This document shows positions 15,823-42,568 of a stretch of DNA of 64,000 nt, piece by piece. The notes beneath the pieces were generated by a model that was not told the origin of the DNA, made no database searches, and saw nothing but the letters and a program-made list of their open reading frames with translations. Within the stretch, counting starts at the first letter, position 1. Each line of letters opens with the position of its first letter. The stretch comes from an uncultured Chloroflexia bacterium (GTDB lineage Bacteria > Chloroflexota > Anaerolineae > Promineifilales > UBA4811). The stretch lies in the NCBI GenBank assembly GCA_963707345.1, contig CAVPPE010000003.1, forward strand, positions 440,426 through 504,425, written 5' to 3'. The position numbers and the translations under genes are program-made.

Positions 15823-15878
15823 TTTGCACAAAACCTGCATCCTATCTCCATAGGTCCTTCATACTTCAGTGCTAGAAT
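15823..15878 (+). promoter_or_regulatory. Four 11-bp-phased repeats plus extended -10 (putative OmpR-family site 1)
   Basis: TTTGCACA/CCTGCATC/TCTCCATA/CCTTCATA at 15823, 15834, 15845, 15856; TGcTAGAAT with -10 at 15873. Confidence 0.7.
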
Positions 15879-15945
15879 GACAGACCTTATGCAGGTAGCA
15901 ATACCGCAAGTCCTGAATCGGAGCAGATGTGTATAGGAGAGGCAT

Positions 15946-16587
15946 ATGTCCAACGTAACGACGATTTCAAAACAAACTCGAGCCAATTGGCTAATTGACG
16001 CGGCCGTTTTCCTGACTGGGGCGGCGGCGATCCTTTCCGGGATCTATTTTCTTTTCCTGCCATCGGGCGGGTATGAAGGCGGCCGGAACCCGATGTACGG
16101 CGTGGTGATCCTGTTTGATCGGCACACCTGGGACGATCTGCACGTCTGGGGAGGTGTGCTGATGATTGCGGCTGCGGTGGTCCATTTTGCCATCCATTGG
16201 GATTGGGTCAAGCGGATGAGCCGCAGGGTGGTGAAGGCTCTGAGAGAGCCGGCCTGCGGTCTTTCGAAAGGCGCTTGGGTGAATGTGGTGGTGGACCTGG
16301 TGATTGCCATTAGCTTTGTGATCACGGCCGCGTCCGGCGTTTTCTTTTTGTTTGCCCCGGCCGGCGGCTTTCAGGGCGGCCGGAATCCCGGCTGGGACCC
16401 CGGTTTCCTGTTCAGCCGCGCCACCTGGGACCTGATTCACACCTGGGCCGGGGTGGTGATGGTGGCAGCGGCCGTGATGCATGTGTGGATTCATTGGCGC
16501 TGGGTGGTCAATGTGACCAGGCGCTTTTTCCTCTCGCTCCGGCCGCAGCCGCGCTTGGCGCCGGTGGTCGTGACCAAGTTTGAGTGA
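15946..16587 (+). CDS. Tandem DUF4405-like membrane protein (cytochrome b-like His pairs)
   Basis: Two internal repeats WxxxHxWxG...HxxxHWxW; AGGAG RBS. Confidence 0.8.
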   Translation: MSNVTTISKQTRANWLIDAAVFLTGAAAILSGIYFLFLPSGGYEGGRNPMYGVVILFDRHTWDDLHVWGGVLMIAAAVVHFAIHWDWVKRMSRRVVKALREPACGLSKGAWVNVVVDLVIAISFVITAASGVFFLFAPAGGFQGGRNPGWDPGFLFSRATWDLIHTWAGVVMVAAAVMHVWIHWRWVVNVTRRFFLSLRPQPRLAPVVVTKFE

Positions 16588-16627
16588 GACGGGCAACAAT
16601 CGGATATCAATAAGGGGAGATACAGCG

Positions 16628-17203
16628 ATGGTTAAGAGAATTCTGATAGGAACGCTTTTTGTCGGGCTGATCGGTTTTCTGGCGGCCGGGGCGGTCATCC
16701 GCACCCTGGATCGAACCGGCCCGGCGGCAGCGGCCGCCAGCGAGGAGACACGCGAGCAAACGGGCCAGGGCCGCGGCCGGGATGCGGAAGCGGCCGGCGA
16801 ATGTGGGGTAGATGGCCCCAAGACCGAGGGCACAGATTTACGCGGCCAGGGCAATGGTAATGCAGACCGCAGGGCGACCGGGGAGCAGGTCGGGGCAGGC
16901 CAGGCAGAGGTAGATGAATGGGTGCAGATCAGTGGCGCAGTCGTTGCGGTAGATGCAGAGATGTTGACAGTGCAGCTGCCTGATGGAAACCAGCTGATCG
17001 TCGACGGCCGGGCGTGGCGGTATGTTCAGGAGCAGGGTTTTGCGATCTCGGTGGGAGATGAGGTGACGCTGATTGGCTTTTTTGAGAATGGCGACTTGGA
17101 GGTTGGTCAGATCGACGACTACACCAGCGGCCAGACTGTGAGCATTCGCGACGAGTCCGGTCGGCCGCTGTGGGCCGGCCGCGGCCGGGGTGGTCAGTTT
17201 TAG
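16628..17203 (+). CDS. Secreted or membrane-anchored hypothetical protein with OB-fold-like C-terminal domain
   Basis: Signal/TM, Gly-rich linker, ISGAVVAVD...VGDEVTLIG beta pattern; GGGGAG RBS. Confidence 0.7.
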   Translation: MVKRILIGTLFVGLIGFLAAGAVIRTLDRTGPAAAAASEETREQTGQGRGRDAEAAGECGVDGPKTEGTDLRGQGNGNADRRATGEQVGAGQAEVDEWVQISGAVVAVDAEMLTVQLPDGNQLIVDGRAWRYVQEQGFAISVGDEVTLIGFFENGDLEVGQIDDYTSGQTVSIRDESGRPLWAGRGRGGQF

Positions 17204-17228
17204 TCAGACACCAGATTCAGAAGCGTGG

Positions 17229-17262
17229 CACCAGGGGCCCGGCCGGGCCCCTGGTGTTTTTT
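17229..17262 (+). terminator. Intrinsic terminator
   Basis: Perfect 28-bp palindrome CACCAGGGGCCCGGCCGGGCCCCTGGTG plus T6. Confidence 0.8.
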
Positions 17263-17299
17263 GGTGTGCGCGCTCAAGTTGTCGTCGTGGAAGAAAAAC

Positions 17300-17340
17300 G
17301 GGGGTGGGGATGGAGCGCGAAGCGCTCCATCCCCACCCCC
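17300..17340. repeat. Perfect 19-bp-stem hairpin with GAA triloop (divergent relative of the dispersed repeat)
   Basis: GGGGGTGGGGATGGAGCGC-GAA-GCGCTCCATCCCCACCCCC. Confidence 0.7.
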
Positions 17341-17477
17341 TATCACCATCCTGCTGGAGTCGAGTCACTCACAGCATCTGAGCACACACTTTTTTGTGGC
17401 GGGTTGTTGTTTTTTGCCTCGCTTGTGCTACAATCCGGCTCACGGGTTGCTACTACACTGGAAACGAGGAGGTCGCC

Positions 17478-18146
17478 ATGGATATTGGGAAGGCATTTAG
17501 CTTTGTCTTTGAAGATGAGGAATGGGTCAAAAAGGCGCTGATTGGTGCGGTTCTGGCGCTCACTGGCATCGGGTTTATCCCCATCATTGGTTATGGCATG
17601 GAGATTGTACGGCGGGTGGTCAAGGGCCATCCACAGGTCCTGCCTGAGTGGGATGATTGGGGCACCAAAATAATCGAGGGCCTTTTGAGTGGCGTTGTAT
17701 CGTTTGTCTGGTCGCTTCCTGCTGTACTGGTGAGCGTCTGTGTGGGTGTAGTGCTTGTCCCGCTGGCTGACCAGGGCGGAGATGCGGCCGGGATTCTGTT
17801 TGTCGCGCTGTCCGTCTGTGTCGGGCTGGTGGCCATCCTCTACAGCATCGCGCTGATGTTCGTGCTCCCGGCCGCACTGGCACATTACGCGGTCACCGGC
17901 GAGTTTGGAGCCGCGTTCCGCTTTGGCGAGATTATCGGCATGGTCCGGCAAAACCTGAGTGCCTACCTGATGGTCCTGCTGGTGACCATCCTGGCTCAAA
18001 TTGTTGCCAGTTTGGGTAGCATTGCGCTGGGCTGTGGTGTGTTTTTCACTTCCTTTTACTCGGTGCTGATTATGTACCACGCCTACGGGCAGGCGTACCG
18101 GGTAGCGGCCGGCAACGTGGAAGGTTCTGTCGCTTACAACTACTAG
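17478..18146 (+). CDS. DUF4013 family membrane protein
   Basis: MDIGKAFSFVFEDEEWVKK...GY...LPEWDDWG pattern; AGGAGG RBS. Confidence 0.85.
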   Translation: MDIGKAFSFVFEDEEWVKKALIGAVLALTGIGFIPIIGYGMEIVRRVVKGHPQVLPEWDDWGTKIIEGLLSGVVSFVWSLPAVLVSVCVGVVLVPLADQGGDAAGILFVALSVCVGLVAILYSIALMFVLPAALAHYAVTGEFGAAFRFGEIIGMVRQNLSAYLMVLLVTILAQIVASLGSIALGCGVFFTSFYSVLIMYHAYGQAYRVAAGNVEGSVAYNY

Positions 18147-18166
18147 CACAGTTTGAGCGTACGCTG

Positions 18167-18206
18167 GCCCCGGCCGCGCAACGGCGAGATCGGCCGGGGC
18201 TTTTTT
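18167..18206 (+). terminator. Intrinsic terminator
   Basis: GCCCCGGCCG...CGGCCGGGGC plus T6. Confidence 0.75.
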
Positions 18207-18221
18207 GTTTGGGAGGGTTGA

Positions 18222-18989
18222 TTGTCACCTATCGCAGAGACTGCCAGCGGGCCGATCTGGCATGCGCGTACCCGCCGGCCGGTTACCGGCCGGCCGCCGG
18301 TGGTGTTGATCCACGGCGCAGGCGGCTCGCATCTGCATTGGCCTCCTTATTTGCGGCGCTTGCCCGGCACTGACGTGCTGGCTTTGGATCTGCCGGGCCA
18401 CGGCCGTTCGGCCGGGGCCGGCCGGGATAGCATTGCCAACTATGCGGCCGATCTATTGGCCTGGCTGGACGCGCTGGCGGTGGAGCGGGCGGTTCTGTGC
18501 GGCCACTCGATGGGAGGAGCAGTAGCCCAATGGCTGGCACTGGAGCGGCCGGAGCGTGTGGCAGGGCTGGTGCTGATGGGTACCGGGGCCATGCTGCGGG
18601 TAGCGCCCATTTTGCTGGAAACCGTTTTAAATAACCCCGCGGCCGTTCTGGGGATGATGGCTGACTGGCTATACGGTCCGGCCGCGCCGCCGGCGCTGCG
18701 GGAATTGGGGATGCAGGCTATGGCCGCCGTCCCGCCGGCCGTCTTTCATGGTGATCTGCTGGCCTGCGACCAGTTTGACGTGCGCGGCCGGCTGGCAGAG
18801 ATTTGCGTTCCTACCCTGGTGGTCGGCGCGACCGAGGACAAGATGACCCCGCTCAAGTTCTCGCACTACCTGGCGGAAAATATCCCCGGTGCACAGTTGG
18901 TGATTGTTGCGGAAGCCGGCCACATGATGATGCTGGAGCGGCCGGATGAGGTGGGCGCGGCCGTGACCAGGTTCCTGAGTGCGTTATAA
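18222..18989 (+). CDS. Alpha/beta hydrolase
   Basis: LIHGAGG, DLPGHG, GHSMGG nucleophile elbow, AGHMM. Confidence 0.9.
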   Translation: MSPIAETASGPIWHARTRRPVTGRPPVVLIHGAGGSHLHWPPYLRRLPGTDVLALDLPGHGRSAGAGRDSIANYAADLLAWLDALAVERAVLCGHSMGGAVAQWLALERPERVAGLVLMGTGAMLRVAPILLETVLNNPAAVLGMMADWLYGPAAPPALRELGMQAMAAVPPAVFHGDLLACDQFDVRGRLAEICVPTLVVGATEDKMTPLKFSHYLAENIPGAQLVIVAEAGHMMMLERPDEVGAAVTRFLSAL

Positions 18990-19025
18990 TAGGGGCGACC
19001 ACACGGTCGCCTTTTGTCTGTGAGC

Positions 19026-19126
19026 CCAACTGCCTCGGCAGGTGGAAGATGCCAGGGGGAGTGCGGACGCGAAGCGTCCGCACTCCCCCCATCCGACCCC
19101 GCCAAGTCCTTGAGCCGGGCAATTAC
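19026..19126 (+). repeat. ~100-bp dispersed TIR/hairpin repeat, copy B
   Basis: Ends CCAACTGCCTCG...CCGGGCAATTAC; perfect 16-bp stem with GAA loop at 19055-19089. Confidence 0.8.
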
Positions 19127-19157
19127 CTATGGCTGGAAAACCGGATAGGGAAATGAG

Positions 19158-21833
<2,676 letters not shown>

Positions 21834-21854
21834 CGGCCGGCTGTTGCCTGGCTG

Positions 21855-21892
21855 AACAGCTCTCCGAAGGTTCCGCTTTTGGGGAGCTGTTT
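21855..21892. terminator. Hairpin between convergent genes
   Basis: AACAGCTCTCCGAAG...TTTTGGGGAGCTGTT imperfect stem. Confidence 0.5.
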
Positions 21893-21894
21893 CG

Positions 21895-22914
21895 TTAGGG
21901 GGCAATGGCGTCAATGCGCCAGTCGCCGTCTTGGTCGATCAGGGTAATGGTGCGGGTTGCAACCCGGCCTTCTGGAAAGGTGAGTTCGGCACGGACCAGG
22001 ACCCCACCTTTGCCATCCGACCCAATCAGATTAACATAAAACGAGCTATAAAGCTGCTGGACGCCGAGTAGGTCCAGCGACGCCCGGTCCCTCAAGTTGG
22101 TGCTCAGAAACTCGACCCCGGTCCCGCCCCGCAGCACAGTCCCCAGGTATTGCACCGCCACATCTATTGGATCATCCAGATTTGAACTGAGGGTGACAGA
22201 GTTGAGCAGCCGGTCCAGCACAGGCTGCAACGCGACCAACTCGGGTGTGTTCCGGCCGCTCACGTAAATGTCAACCGCCAACTGCGCCTCCGGCCGGAAG
22301 ATGATGTGTTTTTCCACCGCGATTGCTGTATTGTCGACCACCAACTGAACAGTAAATGCGGTCCCTTCGGTCCAGCCCAGGCCTACGCTGGAGGTTTGTA
22401 AAATGCGCGCCCCGGCCGGCAGCAATGCGGCCGGCTCCCAACCCGTTTCAACGCTGCCCCAGGTGACCCCCACCAGCCCGCCCGAGCTTCCCACCCAGCT
22501 CCACTCGTCGTCGCGCCATTGGAGCCAGTCGGCCGGCACTTCAAATGCCAGCCGGATTTCCGGTATCTGTATTCGCTGCCATTCGTCCGGTTGCGCAGCA
22601 GTGGGACGCGGCGTTGGGGTGCGGAGAGTCGCGGTCACGGTGATGGTCAGGGTAGGTGTCACGGCGGCCGGTTGGGTTGCGGTGGGAGGCGGCGCAACTG
22701 TGGATGTTGAGGTCGAGGTTGGGAGCGCGGCTGCGATCTCGATTGGTGCTACGGTTGGAATGGGAGGCGATGCCGAGATAGGGGCATCGGTGGCGGTCTG
22801 GGATTCGACCCGGCCGCTGGCTACTGCCAGGGCCAGCAGGCCGGTCAGTACTGCCAGCAGTGCGCCAACGGCGATCAGGGTGATCAGCGTGAATGGTTTA
22901 GCAATGCGCATCAC
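21895..22914 (-). CDS. Membrane-anchored extracytoplasmic protein with Pro/Thr-rich linker
   Basis: N-terminal TM, P/T stalk, globular C-terminus ending WRIDAI (NTF2-like is a guess). Confidence 0.7.
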   Translation of the reverse strand: MMRIAKPFTLITLIAVGALLAVLTGLLALAVASGRVESQTATDAPISASPPIPTVAPIEIAAALPTSTSTSTVAPPPTATQPAAVTPTLTITVTATLRTPTPRPTAAQPDEWQRIQIPEIRLAFEVPADWLQWRDDEWSWVGSSGGLVGVTWGSVETGWEPAALLPAGARILQTSSVGLGWTEGTAFTVQLVVDNTAIAVEKHIIFRPEAQLAVDIYVSGRNTPELVALQPVLDRLLNSVTLSSNLDDPIDVAVQYLGTVLRGGTGVEFLSTNLRDRASLDLLGVQQLYSSFYVNLIGSDGKGGVLVRAELTFPEGRVATRTITLIDQDGDWRIDAIAP

Positions 22915-22996
22915 GGCGTGATTGTACCAAAAGCGTGCTCTGTGTCACGGGCAGGGGCCTGTTTTGCTGCCGCCTGATACGATTGGTTTTACTCCT

Positions 22997-24228
22997 AAAG
23001 GCCAGCAAGCCCCACTGCTTGCGGTGGGGATGAATGGCCCTTACGCTTGACGGACATTCCGTCATGTACCATCATTTGAGCATGGCGACGAAAACTCTCA
23101 AGTACCGAATCTACCCTAGCAAGGCTCAAAGGACAGCGATGCAAGTCTCGCTCGATGCCTGCCGTTGGGTCTACCACAAGACGTTGGAAGTTCGCCGTGA
23201 TGCTTGGCAAGATAGGCAAGAATCTCTCTCGCTGTATGATACCAACAAGATGCTGACTCAATGGAAACAGGAATATCCCTGGTTGTCTCGGGCTTTCTCC
23301 CAATCTTTGCAGGAGGCCCAGGAGCGCATCGATTTGGCTTTCCAACATTTCTTTCGCCGCTGCCAGAAGGGAGAGAAACCTGGCTATCCTCGCTTCAAGG
23401 GCGACTGGAACAAGTCCTTCGCCTACCAGCAAGCCTGGAATGGCTTTAGTTTCACCGATGATGGCAAGCTCTACCTCTGCAAGATCGGCAACGTCAAGAT
23501 CAAGCTGCATCGTCCCATCGAGGGCCAGGTCAAGCGGCTGATTGTTAAGCGAGATACCCTCGGTAACTGGTATGCCGGTTTCATCGTCGAGTTTGAGCCC
23601 GACTTGCTCTCTCCGACACATCAAGTCGTTGGTGTTGACGTGGGCCTGACTCACTAAAATGGGCGGATACCCTTTCTCTGGCGAGAAGATCGAGAATCCG
23701 CGCAATCTTTCGAAGGACGATAGCTGTATGGCGAAGTCGACGCCGGAATGACCGCAAGCGTACGACCATACGTGTGATGCAACACACCATCACCGTGGGC
23801 ACGCGAAGTCACCGCAAGGGACCTGCGACGAGCTCCAGTCGGCGGTTAGTCAACGAATTTCAGATCATGGCCAGCGAACGACTTGGACATCCGAGATTGA
23901 ACGATGGGAGATAGCCAGGATGACATCGAGTATCGGTGATTCCCGCGTGGCATCAATTGCCCGTGTGGTGGGCAATTCACAACCTATCGCGGCCAGCATG
24001 GTAGGCAGTCTCCACGAGTTGAGCCGCGTAACACCACAGCGAGAGCTCTGGCTGTGGTCAGATTGGCCCAAAGATTGGTCTACTTCGTATCCCGGAAAGT
24101 AGGCGCTGCAGCTGCTGGCCGAGTTCTCGACAGTACATCGTAACATCACCCTGAATAAACTAGCACTGGGCAGTGCTATGGGTTCAAATCCTTAGAAGCC
24201 CCGTCGCTTGCGGCCGGGGAGCATTCAC
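22997..24228 (+). mobile_element. IS200/IS605-family (IS1341-type, tnpB-only) element, decayed
   Basis: Left hairpin AAGCCCCACTGCTTGCGGTGGGGA; right hairpin GAAGCCCCGTCGCTTGCGGCCGGGGAG ending TCAC at 24228; left boundary approximate. Confidence 0.85.
23082..24170 (+). pseudogene. tnpB: RNA-guided endonuclease TnpB pseudogene
   Basis: KTLKYRIYP, GYPRFK and RuvC-I VGVDVGL, then stop at 23655-23657; broken remnants (GEKIENPR, VEPRNTT) downstream. Confidence 0.88.
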
Positions 24229-24294
24229 TGTGAGACAAAGACAGGGCGGCTCCTTGGGGAAAACGCCCTGTCTGGCTTGGTGATGAGAAGGGGT

Positions 24295-30245: not shown

Positions 30246-30263
30246 GATAGAGACCTGGTGTGG

Positions 30264-30686
30264 CTAAATGAACAGGGTGATGGAAGAATCTCGCGCCTCT
30301 TTGATGTACATGCCCACCGCGCCGTATTCGTCAATCCATTCCTGGCGCAGCGCCCCTTTGCTGATGCCCATGATCTCCATGGTCATTTCGCAGGCAATGA
30401 CCTTGCCGCCCAACTCCTTAAAGTCATTCATCAACCGTTCCAGGGTGGCGACGTTGGCCTTTTTCATGCGCTGCTCGATCATCCATTTGCCCAGGCCAAG
30501 CATGTGCATCTTGGACAGCGGGCCTTTTGTGATGCCGCCTTTTTGCAGCCGTTGGAGTCCCCAAAAGGTAAAGTAGATGGACGCTTCCATCCCCATGGCC
30601 AGCGCTCCGTTGCCGATGATGAGCGCGCTGTACACTTTGTCCATGTCCCCGCTATGCAAGACGATTGTGGTTCGTTCGGTCTTCAT
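30264..30686 (-). CDS. DsrE/DrsH-like (DsrE2/YrkE type) sulfur carrier
   Basis: SGDMDK...IYFTFWGL...IACEMTM. Confidence 0.88.
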   Translation of the reverse strand: MKTERTTIVLHSGDMDKVYSALIIGNGALAMGMEASIYFTFWGLQRLQKGGITKGPLSKMHMLGLGKWMIEQRMKKANVATLERLMNDFKELGGKVIACEMTMEIMGISKGALRQEWIDEYGAVGMYIKEARDSSITLFI

Positions 30687-30753
30687 GTTCTCCTCCGGTG
30701 AGCGACGAACGACGGATGCCCGCCCTTTGTCGTACGTCCTTCGTCTTCCGTCC

Positions 30754-30975
30754 CTATCGTTGGATTTGGATAACCCAGTCGGTGTCGGTTCCTTCAACGC
30801 TGAGCAGTTCCAACTCCAGCGCCTCAGCCGCCATCGGGATCTCTACTTTAGATGCAGGGTGGGTCCCCACTACCTTGATTACGTCACCCGGTGCGGCCTT
30901 GCGCACCGCTTTGCGTGTCTCTACCAGCGGAACGGGGCAGGTCTCCCCACGTACATCAACTAGAATCTCGGTCAT
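30754..30975 (-). CDS. TusA/SirA family sulfur carrier
   Basis: VDVRGETCPVP motif; AAGGAG RBS. Confidence 0.92.
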   Translation of the reverse strand: MTEILVDVRGETCPVPLVETRKAVRKAAPGDVIKVVGTHPASKVEIPMAAEALELELLSVEGTDTDWVIQIQR

Positions 30976-31033
30976 GTTGTCTCCTTGTCGTGATAGCTCG
31001 GCTCAATTCCCCGGTTGCCTGAGCTGTTACTTC

Positions 31034-31699
31034 TCACCTTATCATTGGTAACGGGGGAAGTGCTTCTTTGTCAAATTGAACGATGACCTCGGTTACATCC
31101 CAGAGGTGTGCGATTTTTTCCTCTATTTCCTCGCGAATGTTGGCTGCAAACTGGTGAGTGGGGGGCAGGACTATTTCCACCCGCACCCGGCCGTCCTCGA
31201 CCTCGACCTCTTTCACCAGCTTGGTTCGCACCAGGTCCAGGCCCACCATCGGGTTCATGACTCGCTTGAGTCGTTTATAGACGACCTCGGTTGTGGTGGG
31301 GGTGCGCTCTTTGACCAAACCATGCTTTTCTTCGTAATTTTCGATAGCCGCCCGCAGCGAGTCGATGGCCAGCACCGAACAATGGACCTTGATGGATGGC
31401 AACCCGCCCAACGCGTCTGAAATGTCCTGCCAGGTCATGTTCTTGGCTTCGTCCAGGGTTTTGCCCTTGGCCATTTCGGTGATGATGGAGGCGGTGGCAA
31501 TGTTGGATGCGCAGCCATACGATTCAAAAGTGGCCTGAGTGATGGTGTGGGTCTCTGAATCGACCTTGAGATAAACGGCTACCATATCACCGCAGGCCGG
31601 GCTTCCCTCGACTGCTTTGGCGTCGGGGTCCTCAATCCGGCCGACGTTGCGCGGATTGCGGAAATGTTCCATCACGATGTCAGAATAGGGGATTGGCAT
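31034..31699 (-). CDS. IscU/NifU-N scaffold fused to a degenerate DUF59-like domain
   Basis: EHFRNPRNVG, PACGD, YGCAS, KVHCS; C-terminus LKRVMNPMVGLDLV...VRVEI. Confidence 0.85.
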   Translation of the reverse strand: MPIPYSDIVMEHFRNPRNVGRIEDPDAKAVEGSPACGDMVAVYLKVDSETHTITQATFESYGCASNIATASIITEMAKGKTLDEAKNMTWQDISDALGGLPSIKVHCSVLAIDSLRAAIENYEEKHGLVKERTPTTTEVVYKRLKRVMNPMVGLDLVRTKLVKEVEVEDGRVRVEIVLPPTHQFAANIREEIEEKIAHLWDVTEVIVQFDKEALPPLPMIR

Positions 31700-31700
31700 A

Positions 31701-32876
31701 TTACTCCTCGCTTGGGTCTTTGCCCAGTGGGCTGATGGCTCGCAGTCTCTCAATCACCTCGGTGATAGCGCCGGCCACGGCGTCCACGTCCTCCGGCCGG
31801 TTGAAACGGCCAAAGGTAAAGCGCACCGAGCCATGTGCCCGCTCGTGGTTGCCGCCGATACCCAGCATCACGTGGCTGGCCTCCAGCGAGCGACTGAAGC
31901 ATGCCGAGCCAGTGCTGACGGCAAAGCCACGCATGTCCAGATGCAATAGGATCGATTCGCCCTCCACAAAGCGGAAAGAGACGTTGGCGTTGTGCGGCAG
32001 CCGATGGATGGGGTGTCCGTTGAGAGTGGAATGGGGGATCCGCAGCAGTTGCTCGATCAGGCGGTCACGCATGGATTGCAGCCGGCCGGTCTCCTCCGGC
32101 GTCACCAGTTCAATTGCCTTGGCAAAGCCAACGGCGGCCGGGATGTTTTCGGCACCTCCGCGCAGGTTAAACTCCTGAAATCCGCCATCCATCCATTTTG
32201 CCAGCGGGGTTCCCTGGCGCACGTACAGGCCGCCGACCCCCTTTGGTCCGTGAACCCGGCTGGGGGTAATGGAGATCAGATCGATCGGCGTCTCCTGCAC
32301 GTTGATCGGGATGCGGGGGTAGGAGTGGGTGGCGTCGGTGTGGAACAGCACGCCGTTTTCCTTGCAGATAGCGCCAATGGCCTGGATGTCCTGCAGCGTG
32401 CCGATCTCCTGGTTGGCCGCTTGTACCGTGACCAGGATGGTCTGCGGGGTCAATGCGCTGCGCAGATGGTCCAGGTTCACCCGGCCGGTTGGGTCCACCG
32501 GCAGGAGTGTGACCGAAAACCCCTGTCTTTCCAAAGCCCGCACGCTGTACAGCACCGCAAAATCCTCGACGCTGGTGGTGATGAGGTGCTGCCCCTTCTT
32601 CCTACCCAACGCCATCGCCACCCCTTTGATGGCCAGGTTGCTGGCCTCGGTGCTGCCGGAGGTAAAGATGACCTCCTCCGGCGCAGCGTTCACCGAGCCG
32701 GCAATGCTGGCGCGGGCAGCGTCCAGCGCGTCCTTGGCGTCCACGCCGGGAGAGTAGCCGAATTGGGATGTGGCGACCGCGTACGTCTCAAAAAAGTAGG
32801 GGGTCATTGCCTCCAGCACCCGCTCGTCCAGGCGGGTGGCGGCCGCGTTGTCCAGATAGACTGTTTTTCCAAGCAT
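31701..32876 (-). CDS. IscS-like class V aminotransferase fold protein lacking the PLP lysine
   Basis: YLDNAA, FTSGSTEASN and STGSACFS retained; SxHK site reads TPSR. Confidence 0.85.
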   Translation of the reverse strand: MLGKTVYLDNAAATRLDERVLEAMTPYFFETYAVATSQFGYSPGVDAKDALDAARASIAGSVNAAPEEVIFTSGSTEASNLAIKGVAMALGRKKGQHLITTSVEDFAVLYSVRALERQGFSVTLLPVDPTGRVNLDHLRSALTPQTILVTVQAANQEIGTLQDIQAIGAICKENGVLFHTDATHSYPRIPINVQETPIDLISITPSRVHGPKGVGGLYVRQGTPLAKWMDGGFQEFNLRGGAENIPAAVGFAKAIELVTPEETGRLQSMRDRLIEQLLRIPHSTLNGHPIHRLPHNANVSFRFVEGESILLHLDMRGFAVSTGSACFSRSLEASHVMLGIGGNHERAHGSVRFTFGRFNRPEDVDAVAGAITEVIERLRAISPLGKDPSEE

Positions 32877-32952
32877 CAATCGTTTATCCCTTTGACCATC
32901 TTTGCATCTGCGCAACTGGTGGGCTCGGCCGGAGCGGTTTCATGTGCCCAAG

Positions 32953-33051
32953 GTAACTGCCCAGCCAGTATCAAGTTGTTCGGGGTGTGAGAGCGCGGAG
33001 CGCCCGCACACCCCAGCTTTCCGTTCCCAAGCCCATGGGCTTGGTAGTTAC
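32953..33051 (+). repeat. ~100-bp dispersed TIR/hairpin repeat, copy C
   Basis: Ends GTAACTGCCCAG...CTTGGTAGTTAC; central hairpin with GC-GGA-GC loop. Confidence 0.85.
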
Positions 33052-33218
33052 TGACTAAGTATAGCAGGAGAGGGGGCAGTTCGTCCAGGACAAAAGTCAT
33101 ATATTTATCTGAAAAACCTCGCATGACAGGCGTGTTTCAGATGCCAGTGTGAGGGTGAAACCGGCCGGAAAGGCCAGGTTGCGTAATGGATACACGGGTG
33201 CGAACTGCCGGCCGTCCG

Positions 33219-35561
33219 CTAGTCTCGGACGGGGAGCAGGAAAACCGGCGATTGAGATTGATCCACCACCCGTTTGGCCGCGCTGCCCATGATGAGGCGA
33301 TCCAGGCCACCGCGGCCGCGTGTGGATAGCATGATCAGGTCGGCGTGTTCGGCCTCGGCCGTCTCCACGATGGTTCGCACGGGATACGACCCGGTCACGA
33401 TGGTCTGCACGCTCACACACTCGTCACAAATGTAGGCTGCCACGTCGTTCAAATAGTGCCACAGTTGCCCCTCTGCTTCAGCACGCATTCTTCCCACCCG
33501 GTCAGGCGCTGCACCAAACTCATCCGCTTCCGGCACTTCGGGCACCGACAACAGCACAATCTTGGCCTTGAACGCGGCCGCCAGCGCCCTGGCGTACGGC
33601 AGAATGCGCTCGGCGAATTCAGAGCCGTCCAGATTGACCAGCAAGGTTTCAATCTTTGGCTCGCTCGAGCCATCAGACTGGACCAACAGCACCGGCTGGT
33701 TGATGGTGCTGACCAGCTTGCGGGCCACGCCGCCGCTTAACCAATGCCGGGCACCGGAGCCCCCCCGCGTGCTAGTCACTACCAGGTCGGCGTCGGTCTC
33801 ATTGATCAATTGGCCAATTGTCTCGGTGACCGAGCCGTTACCGGTGACAAAATCGACATTCAGGCCGGTTTTGCGCAGTTGGGCGGCCATGCGCGCAAGG
33901 TAATCTCTGTTCTCTTCCAGCGCTGATACCAGGGTGAGGTGGGTGGCATACTTTCGGCAGATAGTCTGTGCCATCGGCAATGCCTGTTCGGCAAAGGATG
34001 AGCCGTCGAGTGGAACCAACAAGTGGTCCGGGCCAATGGGGTCTCCGCTGAGCCGGACGGCCAGGGCTGGCGAGGGGTGCCAATCGGCCGGGGCAGCGCG
34101 GGCCCTCACCGGCCGGCGGCCGAGGTTGCCGGTCACCTGGCGGATCGCCTGGCCCAAACCAAAGCCGCCCAGCATGCCACCGTGAATTTCGCCCATTGCC
34201 TCTCTCATCGCGCCGGGTTCGCCCAGCGTGCGCCGGAAGTAGTCAAAGATGGTGTACAGGATGGGAATAAAAACCAGGTAGGTCCAGGCACCCTCCAAGA
34301 AACGTTCGGAAAAGATGAGGACGGTTGCGCCGGAGGTAAGCAATGCGGCGATGCTGGTCCCAATCAACAGCGCGGCGATTGTGGGCGTAAAATTACGGCC
34401 CAGTTCTCGCAACAATCTTTTGGCGGCCGCCCAGCCAGTCATGCTGAGCAGGATAAAGACCCCGGCCGCATAGATTGCAAGGTAAGTTTCCTCGTGGGTG
34501 CCAAACAGCATAAAGATGAGGCAGGCCAGCCCCACTTCAATCCAGACCGGCTTGTCAGCGACCTCGAACTTGTTCCTCTGGCCCAGCGAGGGGGGAATGT
34601 AGTGGCGTTCCTTGAGTCCCAGCGCCAGGTTTTGCAGCCCCTGAGCGCTGGCGGCCGAAGCTGACATCAACACCGCAATGCCCACCAGTGTGCCCAAGTA
34701 GGGTAGAGGCGCGGGCAGTATCAAGTCCATCGTCTGGGTAAAGACCGATACTTCTCTGTTCAACGGGTCTGCCAGATCAAAGATAGCCGGGCCCACAACC
34801 AGCATGGTCACGGCTGTGGTTCCCATGACGATGATCAGGCTACCGAACGCTTTGTTGCTTTTCTGCTGGGGTGTGCCGTCATAGGCGGCCACCAGGTTGG
34901 CAAACACCTCAATGCCGGTCATCACCGCCAGGATGCGCGTAAAACCGCCAAATGTGAAATGGAGGTTGGCTGGCGAAAATGCCTGCGGGTTGATACTGGG
35001 CAAGCGAAAGCCATATTTCCAGATGGAAGCAAAGACCATTAGCCAGAGCAGCAGCAGCACCCCGGCCGTGGCCGGGCCAAATGCCCGCGCCGCCACCTTT
35101 GGCCCCCGGTTCACCACCCATCCGATCAGGACGCTCAACACGACGGCAACCAAGGTGCGGTACTGAATCCCCAGCACGGCTTCGTTCAACATCGGAAAAC
35201 GGTCGGCGATAAAGGTGACCAGGGCGGCCATGCTGACCAGGAAGGTGAGCGTGTACTCAATGAAGGTGATGCTGGCGTTAACTTTGACCGCCCACCGGCC
35301 GAACTCTTCCTCGCTCAACCCGCTGCCGCCGCTGCCATCGGTCACCCAGTTCATCACCAGCCGGTACATGGCGGAAACCATGGTGATGGTCAGGATGACC
35401 AGCCAGATCGTGGCGCCAAAGGTGATGCTGGCAACACCTCCGACAACGATCAGTTTGAGAAATGGCCCAAACACGTACAGGGGGGAGGTCGCCGGATCGC
35501 CTCCGCCGGCCAGGGCGCCTTCCAATGAATTTGAGAGCTTGTGGGTGGGTGCGTGCGCCAC
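33219..35561 (-). CDS. APC-superfamily transporter fused to two universal stress protein domains
   Basis: About 12 TM (TGIEVFAN motif) followed by LLVPLDGS and LLVNLDGS...STRGRGGLDRLIMGS. Confidence 0.82.
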   Translation of the reverse strand: MAHAPTHKLSNSLEGALAGGGDPATSPLYVFGPFLKLIVVGGVASITFGATIWLVILTITMVSAMYRLVMNWVTDGSGGSGLSEEEFGRWAVKVNASITFIEYTLTFLVSMAALVTFIADRFPMLNEAVLGIQYRTLVAVVLSVLIGWVVNRGPKVAARAFGPATAGVLLLLWLMVFASIWKYGFRLPSINPQAFSPANLHFTFGGFTRILAVMTGIEVFANLVAAYDGTPQQKSNKAFGSLIIVMGTTAVTMLVVGPAIFDLADPLNREVSVFTQTMDLILPAPLPYLGTLVGIAVLMSASAASAQGLQNLALGLKERHYIPPSLGQRNKFEVADKPVWIEVGLACLIFMLFGTHEETYLAIYAAGVFILLSMTGWAAAKRLLRELGRNFTPTIAALLIGTSIAALLTSGATVLIFSERFLEGAWTYLVFIPILYTIFDYFRRTLGEPGAMREAMGEIHGGMLGGFGLGQAIRQVTGNLGRRPVRARAAPADWHPSPALAVRLSGDPIGPDHLLVPLDGSSFAEQALPMAQTICRKYATHLTLVSALEENRDYLARMAAQLRKTGLNVDFVTGNGSVTETIGQLINETDADLVVTSTRGGSGARHWLSGGVARKLVSTINQPVLLVQSDGSSEPKIETLLVNLDGSEFAERILPYARALAAAFKAKIVLLSVPEVPEADEFGAAPDRVGRMRAEAEGQLWHYLNDVAAYICDECVSVQTIVTGSYPVRTIVETAEAEHADLIMLSTRGRGGLDRLIMGSAAKRVVDQSQSPVFLLPVRD

Positions 35562-35649
35562 GCCGCTGTCCTTCCAACGAATTATAGTAATGAAACAACA
35601 CGCATTTATACATCAAAACCGGCCGCGATGCTAACGTACTTGTGCCCAA

Positions 35650-35705
35650 ATTGCACACCAATTCCACCAGGTCTCCACAGCTTCTCCACACTTCTTTGCT
35701 ATCCT
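35650..35705 (+). promoter_or_regulatory. Four 11-bp-phased repeats plus extended -10 (putative OmpR-family site 2)
   Basis: ATTGCACA/ATTCCACC/TCTCCACA/TCTCCACA at 35650, 35661, 35672, 35683; TGcTATCCT with -10 at 35700. Confidence 0.75.
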
Positions 35706-35764
35706 ATGGTCAGTTTACTGAAGCGATCACCTATCACAAGTATTGTATACAAGGAGTGTATGGT

Positions 35765-36547
35765 ATGAAGACCGTTTTCAAGATAGCTGGAATTGGGTTT
35801 GTATTGTTGGCAGTGCTGGCGCTGGGAGTGACCCTGGTGCTGGCCCAGGAGCCGGCGCCAGAGGCCGAGCCGGCCGAGGTGCCAGAGTGGGGCGGCCCGT
35901 TTGGCGGCCGCGGCCGGATGGGACATGGTGGCATGGGCTTTGCTCCTGACGGCGGCATGTTCGACACGCTGGCAGAGCAATTCGGGATGACGATTGAGGA
36001 AATCATGACCGAATTGCGCAGCGGCATCAGCGTTGCCGAGTTGGCAGAGAGCAACGGTGTGGATGTAGAGGCGTTGATTGACGCGCTGACCGCCGACGCC
36101 CGTGAAAAGATCACCGAGCGGGTGCAGACCCCCTGGACCGGCGGTTTTGCGGGCATGCGCGGTGGCTCGCTGGTGAGCACGCTGGCTGAACTGCTCGAGA
36201 TGGATGTGGCAGATGTCGTGACTGAATTGCAGACAGGCATCAGCATTGCCGAGCTGGCGGAGAGCCACGGTCTGGAGCCGCAACAGGTAGTGGATGCTTT
36301 CCTGGCAGACCATCAAGCCATGCTGGACGCGGCCGTTGAGTCCGGCCGGATCACCCAGGAGCAGGCCGACGAGATGCAGGCACACATGGCTGAAGAGATT
36401 GCCGAGCGGATCACCGAGCCCTGGTCTGCGGGTAACTGTGGCTCCGGCATGCGGCCGGGTGGCTTTGGCGGCCATGGAATGCGCGGCGGCCAGGGCATGT
36501 GGGGCGGCCAGCCGGGCGGTGACTCCCCTCGTGGCCCCAGCTTTTAG
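35765..36547 (+). CDS. Secreted protein with two helical repeats and Gly/Met-rich linkers
   Basis: Signal peptide (VLA-QE); repeats GISVAELAESNG and GISIAELAESHG; AAGGAG RBS. Confidence 0.8.
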   Translation: MKTVFKIAGIGFVLLAVLALGVTLVLAQEPAPEAEPAEVPEWGGPFGGRGRMGHGGMGFAPDGGMFDTLAEQFGMTIEEIMTELRSGISVAELAESNGVDVEALIDALTADAREKITERVQTPWTGGFAGMRGGSLVSTLAELLEMDVADVVTELQTGISIAELAESHGLEPQQVVDAFLADHQAMLDAAVESGRITQEQADEMQAHMAEEIAERITEPWSAGNCGSGMRPGGFGGHGMRGGQGMWGGQPGGDSPRGPSF

Positions 36548-36566
36548 CAAAGCGGGTTGACGGTTG

Positions 36567-36606
36567 ACGGGTAATGGGGTACCCTCCCCATTACCCGTTG
36601 TTTTTT
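36567..36606 (+). terminator. Intrinsic terminator
   Basis: ACGGGTAATGGGG...CCCCATTACCCGT plus T-tract. Confidence 0.75.
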
Positions 36607-36618
36607 GGGTCTGGTGGT

Positions 36619-37332
36619 ATGAAAACGATCTTGGTGGTGGACGACGAGCCGGAAATCATCCGTGTTGCCAGGGGATACCTGGAGCGAGCGGGATTTCGGG
36701 TCGTCTCGGCCGGGGACGGCAACGCTGCGCTGATCGCCTTTCGCCGGGAACAGCCGGACCTGGTAGTGCTGGACCTGAACCTGCCTGCGCCACCCGGCCG
36801 GCAGCCACTGGACGGGCTGGATGTGGCGCGAACGATTCGCCAATCCCGCGGCCCGGCCGCCAACATCCCCATCATCATGCTCACCGCCCGCGTGGATGAG
36901 ACAGACCGGGTGATTGGGCTGGAACTGGGGGCCGACGATTACGTCCCCAAGCCTTTTAGCCCTCGCGAGCTGGTGGCGCGGGTGCGGGCGGTTTTGCGTC
37001 GGACCGCCCCGGCACTGGCCGAGGCCGAACCCATCATTCGCGCCGGCCGGCTGACGGTCGACCCCGGACGGCGCAGCGTTACGCTGGACGACCAGCCGGT
37101 GGAACTCACACCGACCGAGTTTACCTTGTTGTGGACGATTGCGGCCGCACCCGGCCGTGTCTTTAGCCGGCCGCAGCTACTGGATGCGCTGGGATTGGAC
37201 TATGAGGGGTTGGAACGGACGATTGACAGCCACATCAAAAACCTGCGTGCCAAAATCGAAGCCGACACCCAGAACCCCGAGTTTGTGCTGACGGTTTTTG
37301 GCACAGGGTACAAGTTCAATGAGCGCATCTAG
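36619..37332 (+). CDS. OmpR/BaeR-family response regulator
   Basis: ILVVDDE, LDLNLP, GADDYVPKPF, winged helix IDSHIKNLRAK. Confidence 0.95.
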   Translation: MKTILVVDDEPEIIRVARGYLERAGFRVVSAGDGNAALIAFRREQPDLVVLDLNLPAPPGRQPLDGLDVARTIRQSRGPAANIPIIMLTARVDETDRVIGLELGADDYVPKPFSPRELVARVRAVLRRTAPALAEAEPIIRAGRLTVDPGRRSVTLDDQPVELTPTEFTLLWTIAAAPGRVFSRPQLLDALGLDYEGLERTIDSHIKNLRAKIEADTQNPEFVLTVFGTGYKFNERI

Positions 37333-38770
37333 CCGCCGCCGGCCGCAGCTGGGATTCTTTGCCAAGCTGATGGGGGCGTTTATCATCGTGGTGCTGGTGG
37401 TGGGCTTGCTGGTCACCTGGCGGGTGGGTTGGGCCACACAGCGCGAATTTGACCTCTTTGCCTCCAATGTCAGCCGGCAACAGGCGGAGCGGCTGGTGCC
37501 CCTGTTCACCGCTTATTACGAGTTGGCCGGTGGGTGGGAAGGCGTGGACGAGTTGCTTTCCATCTGGCCCGGCGATTTTGCCCCGCGGCGCAATATGCCC
37601 ATGCGGCCGGAGGGGATGATGCCGGGAGGGATGGGGAACGACTTTTGGCGCGTGACCGAGATCGACGTAGTGATCGTCGGCACCGATGGGCAGGTGGTGG
37701 CCGCCTCGGCCGAGGAGTGGGTTGGTAAGCAGGTGCACAAGGAGCAGTTGGCGGCCGGGGCGCCGGTCTGGGTGGATGGGGAGTTGGTTGGAATGGTGCT
37801 GGTCACCGTGGGTGCGGTTTCTGGCAACCAGATTGATGCTTACTTGACCCAGGTCGGCCGGGCCACCTGGCTGGCGGCGCTGGTCGCCGGGCTGGTGGCG
37901 CTGGTGCTGGGCGGTCTTATCACCTGGGGGGTGACCCGGCCGATGCGCGAGTTGACCCAGGCGGCCGAGGCGATTGCGGCCGGTGACCTGAGCCAGCGGG
38001 TCCACATCTCCGGCGGAGACGAGATTGGCGAGCTGGCCGCGGCGTTTAACCGTATGGCGGCCGAGTTGCAGCAGGCAGAAGAGTTGCGCCGGCAGATGAC
38101 GGCCGACATCGCTCACGAGCTGCGCACCCCGCTCAGCGTCATTCAGGGGAACGTGGAAGCGCTGCAAGATGGCGTTTTCCCGCTCACCATGGAGGCGCTG
38201 GAGCCCATCCAGGCCAAGACGGAACTGCTGGCGCGATTGGTGGAGGATTTGCGCAACCTGGCACTGGCGGAAGCCGGCCGGCTGCCGCTGGATCGCCAGC
38301 CCACCGACCTGGCGGAGTTGGTGCAGCGGGTGATCGTGGGCTTTCATCCGGCCGCCGAGGCGAGATCGATTGACATGACGTTGTTGCCGGCCGGGCCGTT
38401 GCCCCCGGCCGATCTGGATCCGCAACGAATCGAGCAGGTGCTCGTAAACCTGCTCTCCAATGCCCTGCGCCACACGCCGAATAGCGGCCGGATTGCGGTG
38501 GAAATCTCCCCGGCCGGGCCGGACAGGCTGACCGCGCGAGTGACGGACAGTGGGCCAGGCATCCCGGCCGCGGATTTGCTGCGGGTCTTTGAGCGCTTTT
38601 ACCGTGTGGACAAGGGGCGGGCGCGTGGCCAGGATGGGGATGGAACCGGACTGGGGTTGGCGGTGGCGCGCTCCATCGTAGAAGCGCACGGGGGCAAGAT
38701 TGGCGTGGAAAGCGAGCTGGGTCAAGGGGCCAGTTTCTGGTTCACCGTGCCGACCGCCCCCCGCGCATAG
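37319..38770 (+). CDS. BaeS-like HAMP sensor histidine kinase
   Basis: 2 TM, HAMP domain, ADIAHELRTPL, N/G1/G2 boxes. Confidence 0.95.
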   Translation: MSASSRRRPQLGFFAKLMGAFIIVVLVVGLLVTWRVGWATQREFDLFASNVSRQQAERLVPLFTAYYELAGGWEGVDELLSIWPGDFAPRRNMPMRPEGMMPGGMGNDFWRVTEIDVVIVGTDGQVVAASAEEWVGKQVHKEQLAAGAPVWVDGELVGMVLVTVGAVSGNQIDAYLTQVGRATWLAALVAGLVALVLGGLITWGVTRPMRELTQAAEAIAAGDLSQRVHISGGDEIGELAAAFNRMAAELQQAEELRRQMTADIAHELRTPLSVIQGNVEALQDGVFPLTMEALEPIQAKTELLARLVEDLRNLALAEAGRLPLDRQPTDLAELVQRVIVGFHPAAEARSIDMTLLPAGPLPPADLDPQRIEQVLVNLLSNALRHTPNSGRIAVEISPAGPDRLTARVTDSGPGIPAADLLRVFERFYRVDKGRARGQDGDGTGLGLAVARSIVEAHGGKIGVESELGQGASFWFTVPTAPRA

Positions 38771-38790
38771 TCCGGTTCGGTTCTCGGCCG

Positions 38791-38846
38791 GCTGCATTGC
38801 AATTCCACTGTATCTCCACAGAATCTCCATAATTTGTTGATATGAT
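38791..38846 (+). promoter_or_regulatory. Four 11-bp-phased repeats plus extended -10 (putative OmpR-family site 3)
   Basis: GCTGCATT/ATTCCACT/TCTCCACA/TCTCCATA at 38791, 38802, 38813, 38824; TGaTATGAT with -10 at 38841. Confidence 0.75.
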
Positions 38847-42554: not shown

Positions 42555-42568
42555 TGAGGAAGATGGCG

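Follow-up and report, generated by a model that had tools for sequence, protein, structure and literature searches.

Results

Within the window, by which we mean the whole 64,000-nucleotide stretch of DNA that was analyzed, a two-component system lies between a gene for a secreted protein and an exporter operon, all on the plus strand. The response regulator (36619..37332) belongs to the OmpR/PhoB family, with PF00072 (receiver; 3.6e-27) and PF00486 (winged-helix Trans_reg_C; 2.3e-21) both above cut-off, and carries a BaeR-type recognition helix, RTIDSHIKNLR. The sensor histidine kinase (37298..38770) consists of a transmembrane segment, an extracytoplasmic domain of about 150 amino acids, a second transmembrane segment, and HAMP, HisKA, and HATPase domains; its best named family is BaeS. 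The upstream gene, here called REP (35765..36547), encodes a secreted protein with two helical repeat domains and Gly/Met/His-rich disordered tails, in keeping with the secreted helical-repeat protein that an earlier note on this DNA had placed before the regulator and kinase; it had no structural match in the PDB. A perfect 15-bp hairpin followed by a U run (36565..36600, plus strand) separates REP from the regulator gene and is likely a partial terminator or attenuator. The same arrangement is found in one relative and was not seen in another. Since the hairpin is strong, autoregulation would depend on readthrough or on an unseen promoter.

Downstream of the kinase gene, also on the plus strand, are genes for a HlyD-type membrane-fusion (adaptor) protein with a long coiled coil (39020..40612; HlyD_D23/HlyD_3), an ABC transporter ATPase (40609..41325; PF00005, 5.7e-33), and a MacB-type permease (41322..42554; MacB_PCD, PF12704, 4.7e-44, and FtsX, PF02687, 3e-22). 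The adaptor scored 104.4 bits against NCBIfam RND_mfp, above the cut-off of 94.9. With a permease combining the MacB core and FtsX, an ATPase, and a membrane-fusion protein, the constituents of a MacB-type exporter are all present, as the earlier proposal of a MacAB-like (type VII ABC) exporter at this place had it. The operon continues with a lipoprotein gene (42554..43534) whose product has an LLLAAC lipobox, a Gly/Pro/Met-rich center, and a weak REP-like helical unit (E value of 0.045); a homologue follows the exporter in two relatives (G003 and G004).

Some 20 kb upstream, on the same strand, is a gene for a DUF4405 membrane protein of the heme-b cytochrome family (15946..16587; PF14358, 3.8e-24). 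Its score of 85.4 bits against a cut-off of 26.7 and its two histidine pairs, in two H...H..H segments, point to membership in this family, one member of which is reported to bind heme b (bioRxiv 10.1101/2024.03.13.584918). The next gene (16628..17203, plus strand; longest ORF from 16580) encodes SEC207, a membrane-anchored extracytoplasmic protein with a G/Q/R-rich linker and a C-terminal OB-fold-like domain. Its predicted structure has a pLDDT of 85 to 97 over residues 100 to 180, and its structural matches are the OB folds of IF1 and LysRS, albeit weak (best E value of 1.5e-3). The heme-b-like membrane protein and secreted protein expected here are thus both found, the second as an anchored one. 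A terminator-like hairpin of 14 pairs with a T run (17227..17258, plus strand) ends the operon.

In front of each of these three gene sets lies the same promoter-like array, which we call S1 (15823..15878), S2 (35650..35705), and S3 (38791..38846), all on the plus strand. Read directly from the sequence, each has four 8-mers with an 11-bp period between unit starts: TTTGCACA/CCTGCATC/TCTCCATA/CCTTCATA in S1, ATTGCACA/ATTCCACC/TCTCCACA/TCTCCACA in S2, and GCTGCATT/ATTCCACT/TCTCCACA/TCTCCATA in S3. The start of unit 4 is exactly 17 bp from the −10 hexamer and 14 bp from the TG of an extended −10, TGnTAnnnT (TGC-TAGAAT, TGC-TATCCT, and TGA-TATGAT), and predicted transcription starts are near 15885, 35712, and 38853, respectively. 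The consensus of the repeat is TCTNCAYA plus 3 variable bases. The geometry given in the earlier note holds at all three sites, as does its statement that a canonical −35 is missing: the best −35 match at 16- to 18-bp spacing is at most 3/6, and a sigma-70 consensus scan called no promoter at these positions. With direct repeats on one strand at an 11-bp period, a fixed distance to the −10, and no apparent −35 hexamer, the sites have the sequence features of a PhoB-type class II activator-dependent promoter. When the S3 region was compared with that of two relatives, the array and the −10 were the only conserved part.

The number of such promoters has to be revised from three to four. A fourth site, S4, lies outside the window on another contig of the same genome (G000:C1:233918-233973, minus strand), before an operon encoding a TtcA-like PP-loop enzyme, a 299-amino-acid protein without a Pfam match, and a probable J-domain chaperone. 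Both S1 and S4 have TCTCCATA as unit 3 and CCTTCAYA as unit 4. The G000 genome is 3.66 Mb, and 7,319,858 positions were scored on both strands. TCTCCAYA-N3-TCTCCAYA matches only twice in it, at S2 and S3, and with a matrix made from these two alone, S1 ranks third of all positions and is thus the top non-training one. The pattern CTNCAY-N5-CTYCAY-N10-TANNNT has four matches, S1 to S4, and none when eight other −10 distances or seven other unit spacings were used. The matrices and pattern derive from these same sites, so that recovery in relatives is partly circular; this was addressed by reversed and spacing controls and by a matrix from eight sites of other genomes, mostly of the CTCCA type. 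With this relatives-only matrix, S2 scored 56.8, S3 55.0, S1 48.6, and S4 47.6, and the next independent position scored 13.1. The earlier note had considered that the spaced motif might be common in random DNA; the maximum in a Markov-1 simulated genome was 11.3.

In other genera, too, the array is found in front of the exporter and of the orthologous regulator/kinase operon. Footprinting in related genomes, as the earlier note had suggested, found it upstream of the regulator/kinase orthologues in 8 of 9 loci (kinase identity of 46 to 62%); the ninth is truncated, its contig ending a short distance upstream of the regulator gene. An S2-like and an S3-like site occur together in two genomes, which belong to the same genus. 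G003 has its regulator, kinase, adaptor, ATPase, permease, and lipoprotein genes in one block, with a single site in front of it. Across 41 related genomes, the pattern gave 57 matches, compared to 3 for the reversed control and only 7 once the −10 distance was lengthened by one base. Outside G000, 36 of 50 distinct places lie in front of homologues of the G000 regulon families (7 orthologous two-component operons, 9 exporters, 6 DUF4405 operons, 3 SEC207-like genes, 9 paralogous two-component operons, and 2 REP-like genes). In units 1 and 2, on which the search pattern placed no constraint, an in-register CAY is present in 23 and 20 of 53 matches, respectively, compared to 0 to 8 for out-of-register shifts.

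The best PDB match of the regulator is E. coli BaeR (4b09; 3.6e-50), in which the recognition helix is identical. Within G000, this helix occurs in one regulator only, among about 10 winged-helix OmpR-type regulators. The score against the NCBIfam BaeR equivalog (NF007982) is 207.5 bits, with a cut-off of 380, and the top NCBIfam match by E value is PhoB, below the PhoB cut-off; judged by these profiles, the regulator is BaeR-like and cannot be filed as a BaeR equivalog. Similarly, the kinase scores 261.5 and 244.8 bits against the BaeS families NF012163 and NF007837, below their cut-offs of 500 and 603; its best-ranked NCBIfam family is BaeS_SmeS, in an alignment spanning residues 20 to 472. 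Published BaeR boxes are given as TTTTTCTCCATDATTGGC and TCTNCANAA in PMC3799227, where the TCTCCAT that the earlier note had named is also found within a BaeR box. TCTNCAYA fits TCTNCANAA, and helix and box together suggest a BaeR-like specificity.

Helix and box also change together in the relatives. Orthologues with the D-S-H helix have CTCCA boxes in 7 of 7 cases (one with a single CTGCA unit), and three more D-S-H regulators adjoin exporters with CTCCA boxes; autoregulated paralogues with D-V-H have CTTCA boxes in 10 of 10. One D-T-H regulator (G015) adjoins an exporter with mixed boxes. The helix residue and the box base covary, Ser with CTCCA and Val with CTTCA. The arrays of Ser-helix regulators routinely include TGCA or TTCA units, and at the base where CTCCA and CTTCA differ, the published BaeR box reads N (PMC3799227).

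Discussion

The explanation that we favor with good confidence is a BaeSR-like, self-activating regulon with PhoB-type promoters. We consider it highly likely that the regulator at 36619 acts directly on S2 and S3, a link made in the earlier note and supported here by the conserved arrays, the BaeR helix, the matching box, and the covariation of helix and box. S1 and S4 are probably direct targets as well. S1 is assigned to this regulator because G000 offers no other candidate: in six relatives, DUF4405, with or without SEC207, follows CTTCA-box promoters, in three of them with a paralogous regulator and kinase in the same operon, and no second system of this kind was found in G000, where all of the relatives' paralogues match the window pair best.

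From these data, we infer that the regulator binds these promoters, as two dimers each, and activates them; where transcription starts and what the signal is are likewise inferred. The kinase would sense an extracytoplasmic signal, by analogy with BaeSR most likely the action of a metal, an oxidant, or a toxic compound on the envelope, and would phosphorylate the regulator. The envelope-stress or metal response proposed in the earlier note is compatible with the resemblance to BaeSR. Regulator dimers would bind the 11-bp direct repeats head to tail; the four units, taken as two dimers, would cover about −62 to −22, in place of the missing −35, and the regulator would from there recruit RNA polymerase to the extended −10 in the manner of PhoB-type class II activators. 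We imagine that S2 drives REP and, past the hairpin, the regulator and kinase genes, giving positive autoregulation through readthrough. S3 would drive the exporter and lipoprotein, S1 the cytochrome and the anchored OB-fold protein, and S4 the TtcA-like enzyme, the 299-amino-acid protein, and the probable J-domain chaperone.

Could the sites be something else? The likeness among them is real and far beyond chance; that it is a coincidence or a low-complexity artifact has next to no probability, being refuted by the matrix, pattern, reversed, spacing, and register controls. The arrays overlap the −35 position, where a bound protein can occlude polymerase, and they might thus be operators for repression, a roadblock, or an insulator, with transcription coming from other promoters. 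However, the 10-base gap between unit 4 and TAnnnT does not vary from genus to genus, and little of the signal is left if it is set to 11; given this fixed gap, a contact with polymerase would be expected rather than simple occlusion. Moreover, an activator is needed because the sites have no −35, and the same geometry defines promoters that are activated by PhoB, as described in PMC4415409. We therefore regard repression as very improbable.

A more serious alternative is that only S2 and S3 belong to the regulator, and that S1 and S4 are remnants of the regulon of a Val-helix, CTTCA-box paralogous system that has been lost, either silent today or under the control of a different factor. The company that DUF4405 keeps in the relatives, the lack of a second system in G000, and the CCTTCAYA of unit 4 in both sites all fit such a loss. 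The S4 target, moreover, is not conserved: of the five relatives searched, two were found to have a TtcA orthologue, and the site is absent at both (best scores of −16 and −10). Against this, S1 and S4 retain the full four-unit geometry and the −10, a matrix built mainly from CTCCA sites gives them 48.6 and 47.6, and their unit 3 is the TCTCCATA also present in S3. TGCA or TTCA units are routine in the arrays of Ser-helix regulators, in line with the N of the published box (PMC3799227). Finally, with neither a −35 nor an activator, the genes would be unexpressed, and an unused site should decay. On balance, this alternative seems unlikely.

One can envision, more tentatively, a broader history that keeps all four sites under the regulator. 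It is possible that BaeR-like two-component systems are radiating in Anaerolineae as a family with one shared promoter design, its specificity re-tuned by a single helix residue, and that G000 has lost the Val-type paralogue, whose targets were captured by the surviving Ser-type regulator via hybrid boxes (TCTCCATA plus CCTTCAYA). Ser, Val, Thr, and Ala at the middle position of D-x-H may be matched to the fourth or fifth box base (CTCCA, CTTCA, CACACA, and CTGAA); the captured genes may be those for the DUF4405 cytochrome and the OB-fold protein, and the TtcA/J-protein operon may be newly recruited. If so, two ancestral stress regulons would have merged into one.

Returning to the BaeSR-like regulon that we favor, its nearest counterpart is BaeSR of E. 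coli and Salmonella (mdtABCD-baeSR, spy, and acrD). BaeR is the closest solved relative of the regulator, with an identical recognition helix; BaeS is the best family of the kinase and matches it in the sensor domain too; and TCTNCAYA fits the TCTNCANAA and TCTCCAT boxes (PMC3799227). Here as there, the regulon would couple an exporter, its own two-component genes, and a secreted stress-type protein. The single block of exporter and two-component genes in relatives is reminiscent of E. coli mdtABCD-baeSR, which PMC7657598 treats as a single operon, with a BaeR peak upstream of mdtA. In contrast to BaeSR, the two proteins do not reach the NCBIfam equivalog cut-offs and have moderate identity overall, the host group is Anaerolineae (Chloroflexota), the exporter is of the MacB ABC type rather than RND, no resemblance of REP to Spy was detected, and there are extra targets, the cytochrome and OB-fold pair and the TtcA-like operon.

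The pho box is described in PMC4415409 as 11-nucleotide direct repeat units, bound head to tail with a sigma-70 contact; E. coli PhoB promoters thus share with ours the repeat with a conserved and a variable part and the box that replaces the −35. The PhoB box, CTGTCAT, and its regulon differ, the kinase here does not have PhoR architecture, and four units are the rule, whereas a pho box has two. B. subtilis PhoP promoters, with four repeats in an 11-bp layout, would be a closer likeness still.

The exporter resembles MacAB-type (type VII ABC) exporters in its MacB_PCD and FtsX permease, separate ATPase, and HlyD-like adaptor and differs in the conserved, cotranscribed Gly/Met-rich lipoprotein. 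The DUF4405 protein shares its Pfam domain and paired histidines with flavinylation- and ferrosome-associated and MsrQ/PepSY-like heme-b cytochromes, whereas its partner appears to be an anchored OB-fold protein, not ApbE or flavoproteins, and its control is putatively by a two-component system. E. coli MsrPQ, under HprSR control, provides a parallel for the latter.

These findings make a well-supported case for a regulon of textbook kind in a little-studied bacterial group. They provide a concrete regulon and operator model for a regulator from Anaerolineae, in which transcription control is almost without experimental study. The pairing of BaeR helix and box appears to have been kept between Proteobacteria and Chloroflexota, and the covariation of Ser/Val with C/T offers a simple hypothesis on how specificity is read in OmpR/PhoB-family regulators. 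Three gene sets of obscure role, namely, the DUF4405 cytochrome and anchored OB-fold protein, the helical secreted proteins rich in Gly/Met, and the MacB-type exporter and lipoprotein, would be tied to one stress circuit, which narrows the search for their function.

RESULTS

Three promoters in the window share one design, in which four 8-mers start 11 bp apart, a TAnnnT hexamer lies 17 bp past the start of the last 8-mer, and TGn precedes the hexamer. Read directly from the sequence, S1 (15823-15878) has the units TTTGCACA, CCTGCATC, TCTCCATA, and CCTTCATA with TGC TAGAAT; S2 (35650-35705) has ATTGCACA, ATTCCACC, TCTCCACA, and again TCTCCACA with TGC TATCCT; and S3 (38791-38846) has GCTGCATT, ATTCCACT, TCTCCACA, and TCTCCATA with TGA TATGAT. 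In all three, the geometry is exactly as the earlier note had described it, and its claim that a canonical -35 is missing also held: the best match to TTGACA, 16 to 18 bp upstream of the -10, covers 1 to 3 of 6 positions, and a sigma-70 consensus scan called no promoter at S1, S2, or S3. The same scan did call the canonical divergent promoter of rnpA that adjoins S1. This near-consensus promoter (TTGACC-17-TATAAT, 15775-15803, minus strand) is directed at rnpA (15090-15479, minus strand), with its back to S1, and indicates that ordinary promoters of the source genome, G000, do have a -35.

Across the G000 assembly (3.66 Mb, four contigs, 62% G+C, with the window at G000:C3:440426-504425), the dimer TCTCCAYA-N3-TCTCCAYA occurs on either strand only twice, at S2 and S3. 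With a 56-bp matrix trained solely on S2 and S3, S1 ranks third of 7,319,858 positions, and next comes a fourth promoter of the same design, S4, which lies outside the window (G000:C1:233918-233973, minus strand). A matrix built from eight sites of other genomes, with zero G000 sequence, scored S2 at 56.8, S3 at 55.0, S1 at 48.6, and S4 at 47.6; the best of the remaining independent G000 positions scored 13.1, and the peak in an equally large Markov-1 simulated genome was 11.3. The spaced motif is thus not common in random DNA; a common occurrence there had been named as an observation that would speak against a regulon. The genome-wide scan with a spacing constraint, proposed earlier as a check, gave the same four places: CTNCAY-N5-CTYCAY-N10-TANNNT matched S1 to S4 exclusively, and changing the -10 distance to 6-9 or 11-14, or the unit gap to 2-4 or 6-9, left no G000 match. 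A dimer-only matrix (units 3 and 4, without the -10) gave no further convincing G000 site, its best extra score (23.3) falling in GC-rich, coding-looking sequence. We conclude from the matrix ranking and the exact-pattern scan that G000 has four promoters of the phased design; the three first proposed are all real, but the count was wrong, given S4 on C1. TG stands ahead of the -10 at 4/4 G000 sites, compared to 11/53 matches elsewhere. S4 resembles S1 across the 56 bp, a likeness that stops outside, and both are hybrids, with TCTCCATA followed by CCTTCAYA.

The genes first assigned to S1, S2, and S3 (a DUF4405 protein plus a secreted protein, a secreted repeat protein before the regulator and kinase, and a MacB-type exporter plus a lipoprotein) were confirmed. 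The first gene after S2 (35765-36547) encodes REP, a secreted protein in which Gly/Met/His-rich tails flank two helical repeat domains. A fold search of REP against the PDB gave nothing at E ≤ 0.001, and we therefore draw no tie to Spy, CpxP, or ZraP. Between its stop (36547) and the start of the regulator gene (36619) lies a hairpin (36565-36600) with 15 bp of perfect pairing and a U run, so that REP may exceed the regulator and kinase in amount. The related genome G020 keeps the REP-hairpin-regulator order, with a 14-bp hairpin at the equivalent place (L024 9141-9106, minus strand); in G005, no hairpin was found between REP and the regulator. The response regulator (36619-37332) and histidine kinase (37298-38770; HAMP, HisKA, and HATPase) follow, the extracytoplasmic domain of the kinase having a Gly/Met-rich loop that varies between orthologues.

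S3 begins 20 bp after the kinase stop, and its operon (39020-43534) encodes, in order, an HlyD-type adaptor, an ABC ATPase, a MacB_PCD/FtsX permease, and a lipoprotein that shares a weak helical unit with REP (E 0.045). The S3 leader (38853-39037, about 185 nt) is similar in length to those in G005 and G006, shows no conservation against either, and has a terminator-like hairpin (38997-39013) immediately before the adaptor gene. No Rfam family reached its gathering score in positions 15000-44500 of the window, which include this leader.

Behind S1 lie a DUF4405 protein (15946-16587; PF14358, 3.8e-24) and SEC207, a membrane-anchored protein (16628-17203), followed by a terminator-like hairpin (17227-17258). 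DUF4405 proteins are described as heme-b membrane cytochromes, as demonstrated in one member (bioRxiv 10.1101/2024.03.13.584918). SEC207 matched no Pfam or NCBIfam family; it combines a low-complexity linker with a beta domain modelled at high confidence, for which a fold search of the predicted model gave OB folds as the best, weak, matches. Gly/Met/Arg-rich low-complexity composition is common to the REP tails (35765-36547), the centre of the lipoprotein (42554-43534), the SEC207 linker (16628-17203), and the kinase loop (37298-38770). The first gene after S4 encodes a TtcA-like PP-loop protein (Pfam PP-loop; NCBIfam TtcA 3.5e-51, below cut-off); the next gene, with a 4-nt overlap, encodes a 299-aa protein that matched nothing in Pfam, and a J-domain protein (DnaJ plus DnaJ_C) lies 98 nt beyond. 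Among five relatives searched, a TtcA orthologue was found in two, and neither has the array at it.

When 40 relatives were searched with the kinase, nine genomes yielded orthologues, with identities of 46-62%; the named records closest to the kinase are Anaerolineae MAGs. The G000 matrix found the 56-bp architecture at 8/9 orthologous loci; the ninth is truncated by a contig end immediately before the regulator gene. When the S3 region was aligned with G005 and G006, only the array and the -10 were conserved, so that footprinting in related genomes, another check suggested earlier, came out in favor of the sites. Both of these genomes have one site before REP-regulator-kinase and another between kinase and adaptor, in the same order as in the window. 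G003 has a single site ahead of contiguous regulator, kinase, adaptor, ATPase, permease, and lipoprotein genes, and G004 has one before a SEC207 homologue, divergent from the regulator.

In 41 genomes, the exact pattern gave 57 matches in 28/41, with 53 outside G000; the reversed pattern gave 3, and one extra base before the -10 gave 7, with 0 in G000. (The unpublished genome G030 is included in the kinase-search and pattern tallies and is the basis of no claim.) CAY stands in register at unit 1 in 23/53 and at unit 2 in 20/53, compared to 0-8 at shifted registers, and the pattern leaves both units free. The 53 matches fall at 50 distinct places, downstream of which are orthologous (REP-)regulator-kinase operons (7), HlyD-ABC(-FtsX) exporters (9), DUF4405(-SEC207) operons (6), SEC207-like genes (3), paralogous regulator-kinase operons (9), REP-like genes (2), and genes without a homologue of the G000 set (14). 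In the last group, several matches look like chance, for instance those within reading frames that resemble acyl-CoA dehydrogenase genes. At others, the genes downstream encode secreted Cys/Asp-repeat proteins, DUF2202 ferritin-like lipoproteins (confirmed by Pfam at L086 and recognized visually at L097, through a motif in common), a lipoprotein in which a cytochrome-c motif was recognized by eye (L096), or a VTC-domain protein plus DUF4956 (L106, with a site of the same design).

The closest solved structure to the regulator is E. coli BaeR (4b09, 3.6e-50), followed by RegX3 and MtrA, and in alignment its recognition helix, RTIDSHIKNLR, is identical to that of 4b09. The top NCBIfam family of the kinase is BaeS_SmeS (1.4e-77, residues 20-472). 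Since both proteins fall under the curated NCBIfam equivalog cut-offs, we call the pair BaeSR-like rather than BaeSR. Among about ten winged-helix OmpR-type regulators in G000, this one alone has the D-S-H-I-K-N-L-R helix; the nearest other is RTVDMHIAHLR.

Orthologous regulators (60-77% identity) have D-S-H in 7/7 cases and CTCCA units in their own promoters, one of which has a single CTGCA unit. Ten autoregulated paralogues (50-56% identity) have D-V-H and promoters with CTTCA units. Three more D-S-H regulators, in a second family of relatives, adjoin CTCCA-box exporter operons, and one D-T-H regulator adjoins an exporter with mixed boxes. In a distant set of 80 kinase-homologue loci from named Anaerolineae and other Chloroflexota MAGs (L112-L191), the strict pattern, slightly relaxed by leaving the fourth position of unit 4 free, was found at 8 loci (reversed control, 0), and a relaxed matrix found the same layout with other box variants paired with D-T-H, D-A-H, and D-V-H/R helices. 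Across this set, D-S-H, D-V-H, D-T-H, and D-A-H accompany differing repeats (CTCCA, CTTCA or CTGAA, CACACA-ATT), with the 11-bp phasing and the -10 distance kept.

DUF4405-SEC207 genes in relatives are preceded by CTTCA-type sites, and the operon often includes a regulator and kinase of its own; sites before DUF4405 also occur in G006 and G001. No second system was found in G000 (97.3% complete), where every paralogue from relatives best matches the window's pair. At five loci with CTTCA-box promoters, L085, L072, L087, L088, and L094 (G034:C5, G037:C478, G014:C131, G010:C1, and G025:C9), the first genes encode small secreted NFVDEDGDGVCDNC-like repeat proteins, and the paralogous regulator and kinase come after them. 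These may be metal-binding or accessory sensor proteins; REP of G005 and G006 starts with one DGDGLCD motif of the NFVDEDGDGVCDNC-like kind.

DISCUSSION

In PhoB-type activation, as described in PMC4415409, 11-nt direct repeat units are bound head to tail and sigma is contacted. With a transcription start 7 nt past the hexamer, the four units here would span about -62 to -22; the array stops 9 bp short of the -10, its distance from the -10 is invariant, and a -35 is absent. In our best reading, the phosphorylated regulator would recruit polymerase at all four promoters. S2 would then provide positive feedback on regulator and kinase by read-through of the hairpin, and S3 a separate input to the exporter. 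Although PhoB is by E-value the top NCBIfam family of the regulator, a phosphate regulon was considered and set aside, since neither the targets nor the box nor the architecture of the kinase matches one.

The published BaeR consensus, as quoted in PMC3799227, is TTTTTCTCCATDATTGGC (Nishino 2005) or TCTNCANAA (Yamamoto 2008), with a conserved CTNCA core. The likeness to the E. coli box, given in the earlier note, is borne out there, and judged by its letters, the TCTNCAYA unit is the same box. We think that S1 and S4 are also read by the window's regulator, since TGCA or TTCA units are frequent at sites of Ser-helix regulators and the corresponding position of the published BaeR box is N; this is the weakest link.

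E. coli BaeR is reported to directly control mdtABCD-baeSR and spy (PMC7657598), which the present regulon would parallel in logic. The circuit seems to work like BaeSR, with PhoB-style promoters; the pair is not an equivalog by NCBIfam thresholds, the exporter type differs, and neither sequence nor fold searches relate REP to Spy. The likeness to BaeSR, the exporter, the secreted Gly/Met-rich proteins, and the Gly/Met-rich kinase loop suggest that the probable signal is an insult to the envelope, whether chemical, metal, or redox.

What is new here is the content of the regulon, the conservation of helix and box across phyla, and the covariation of one residue with one base. It is possible that two paralogous regulons have merged in G000, which, if so, would be new as well.
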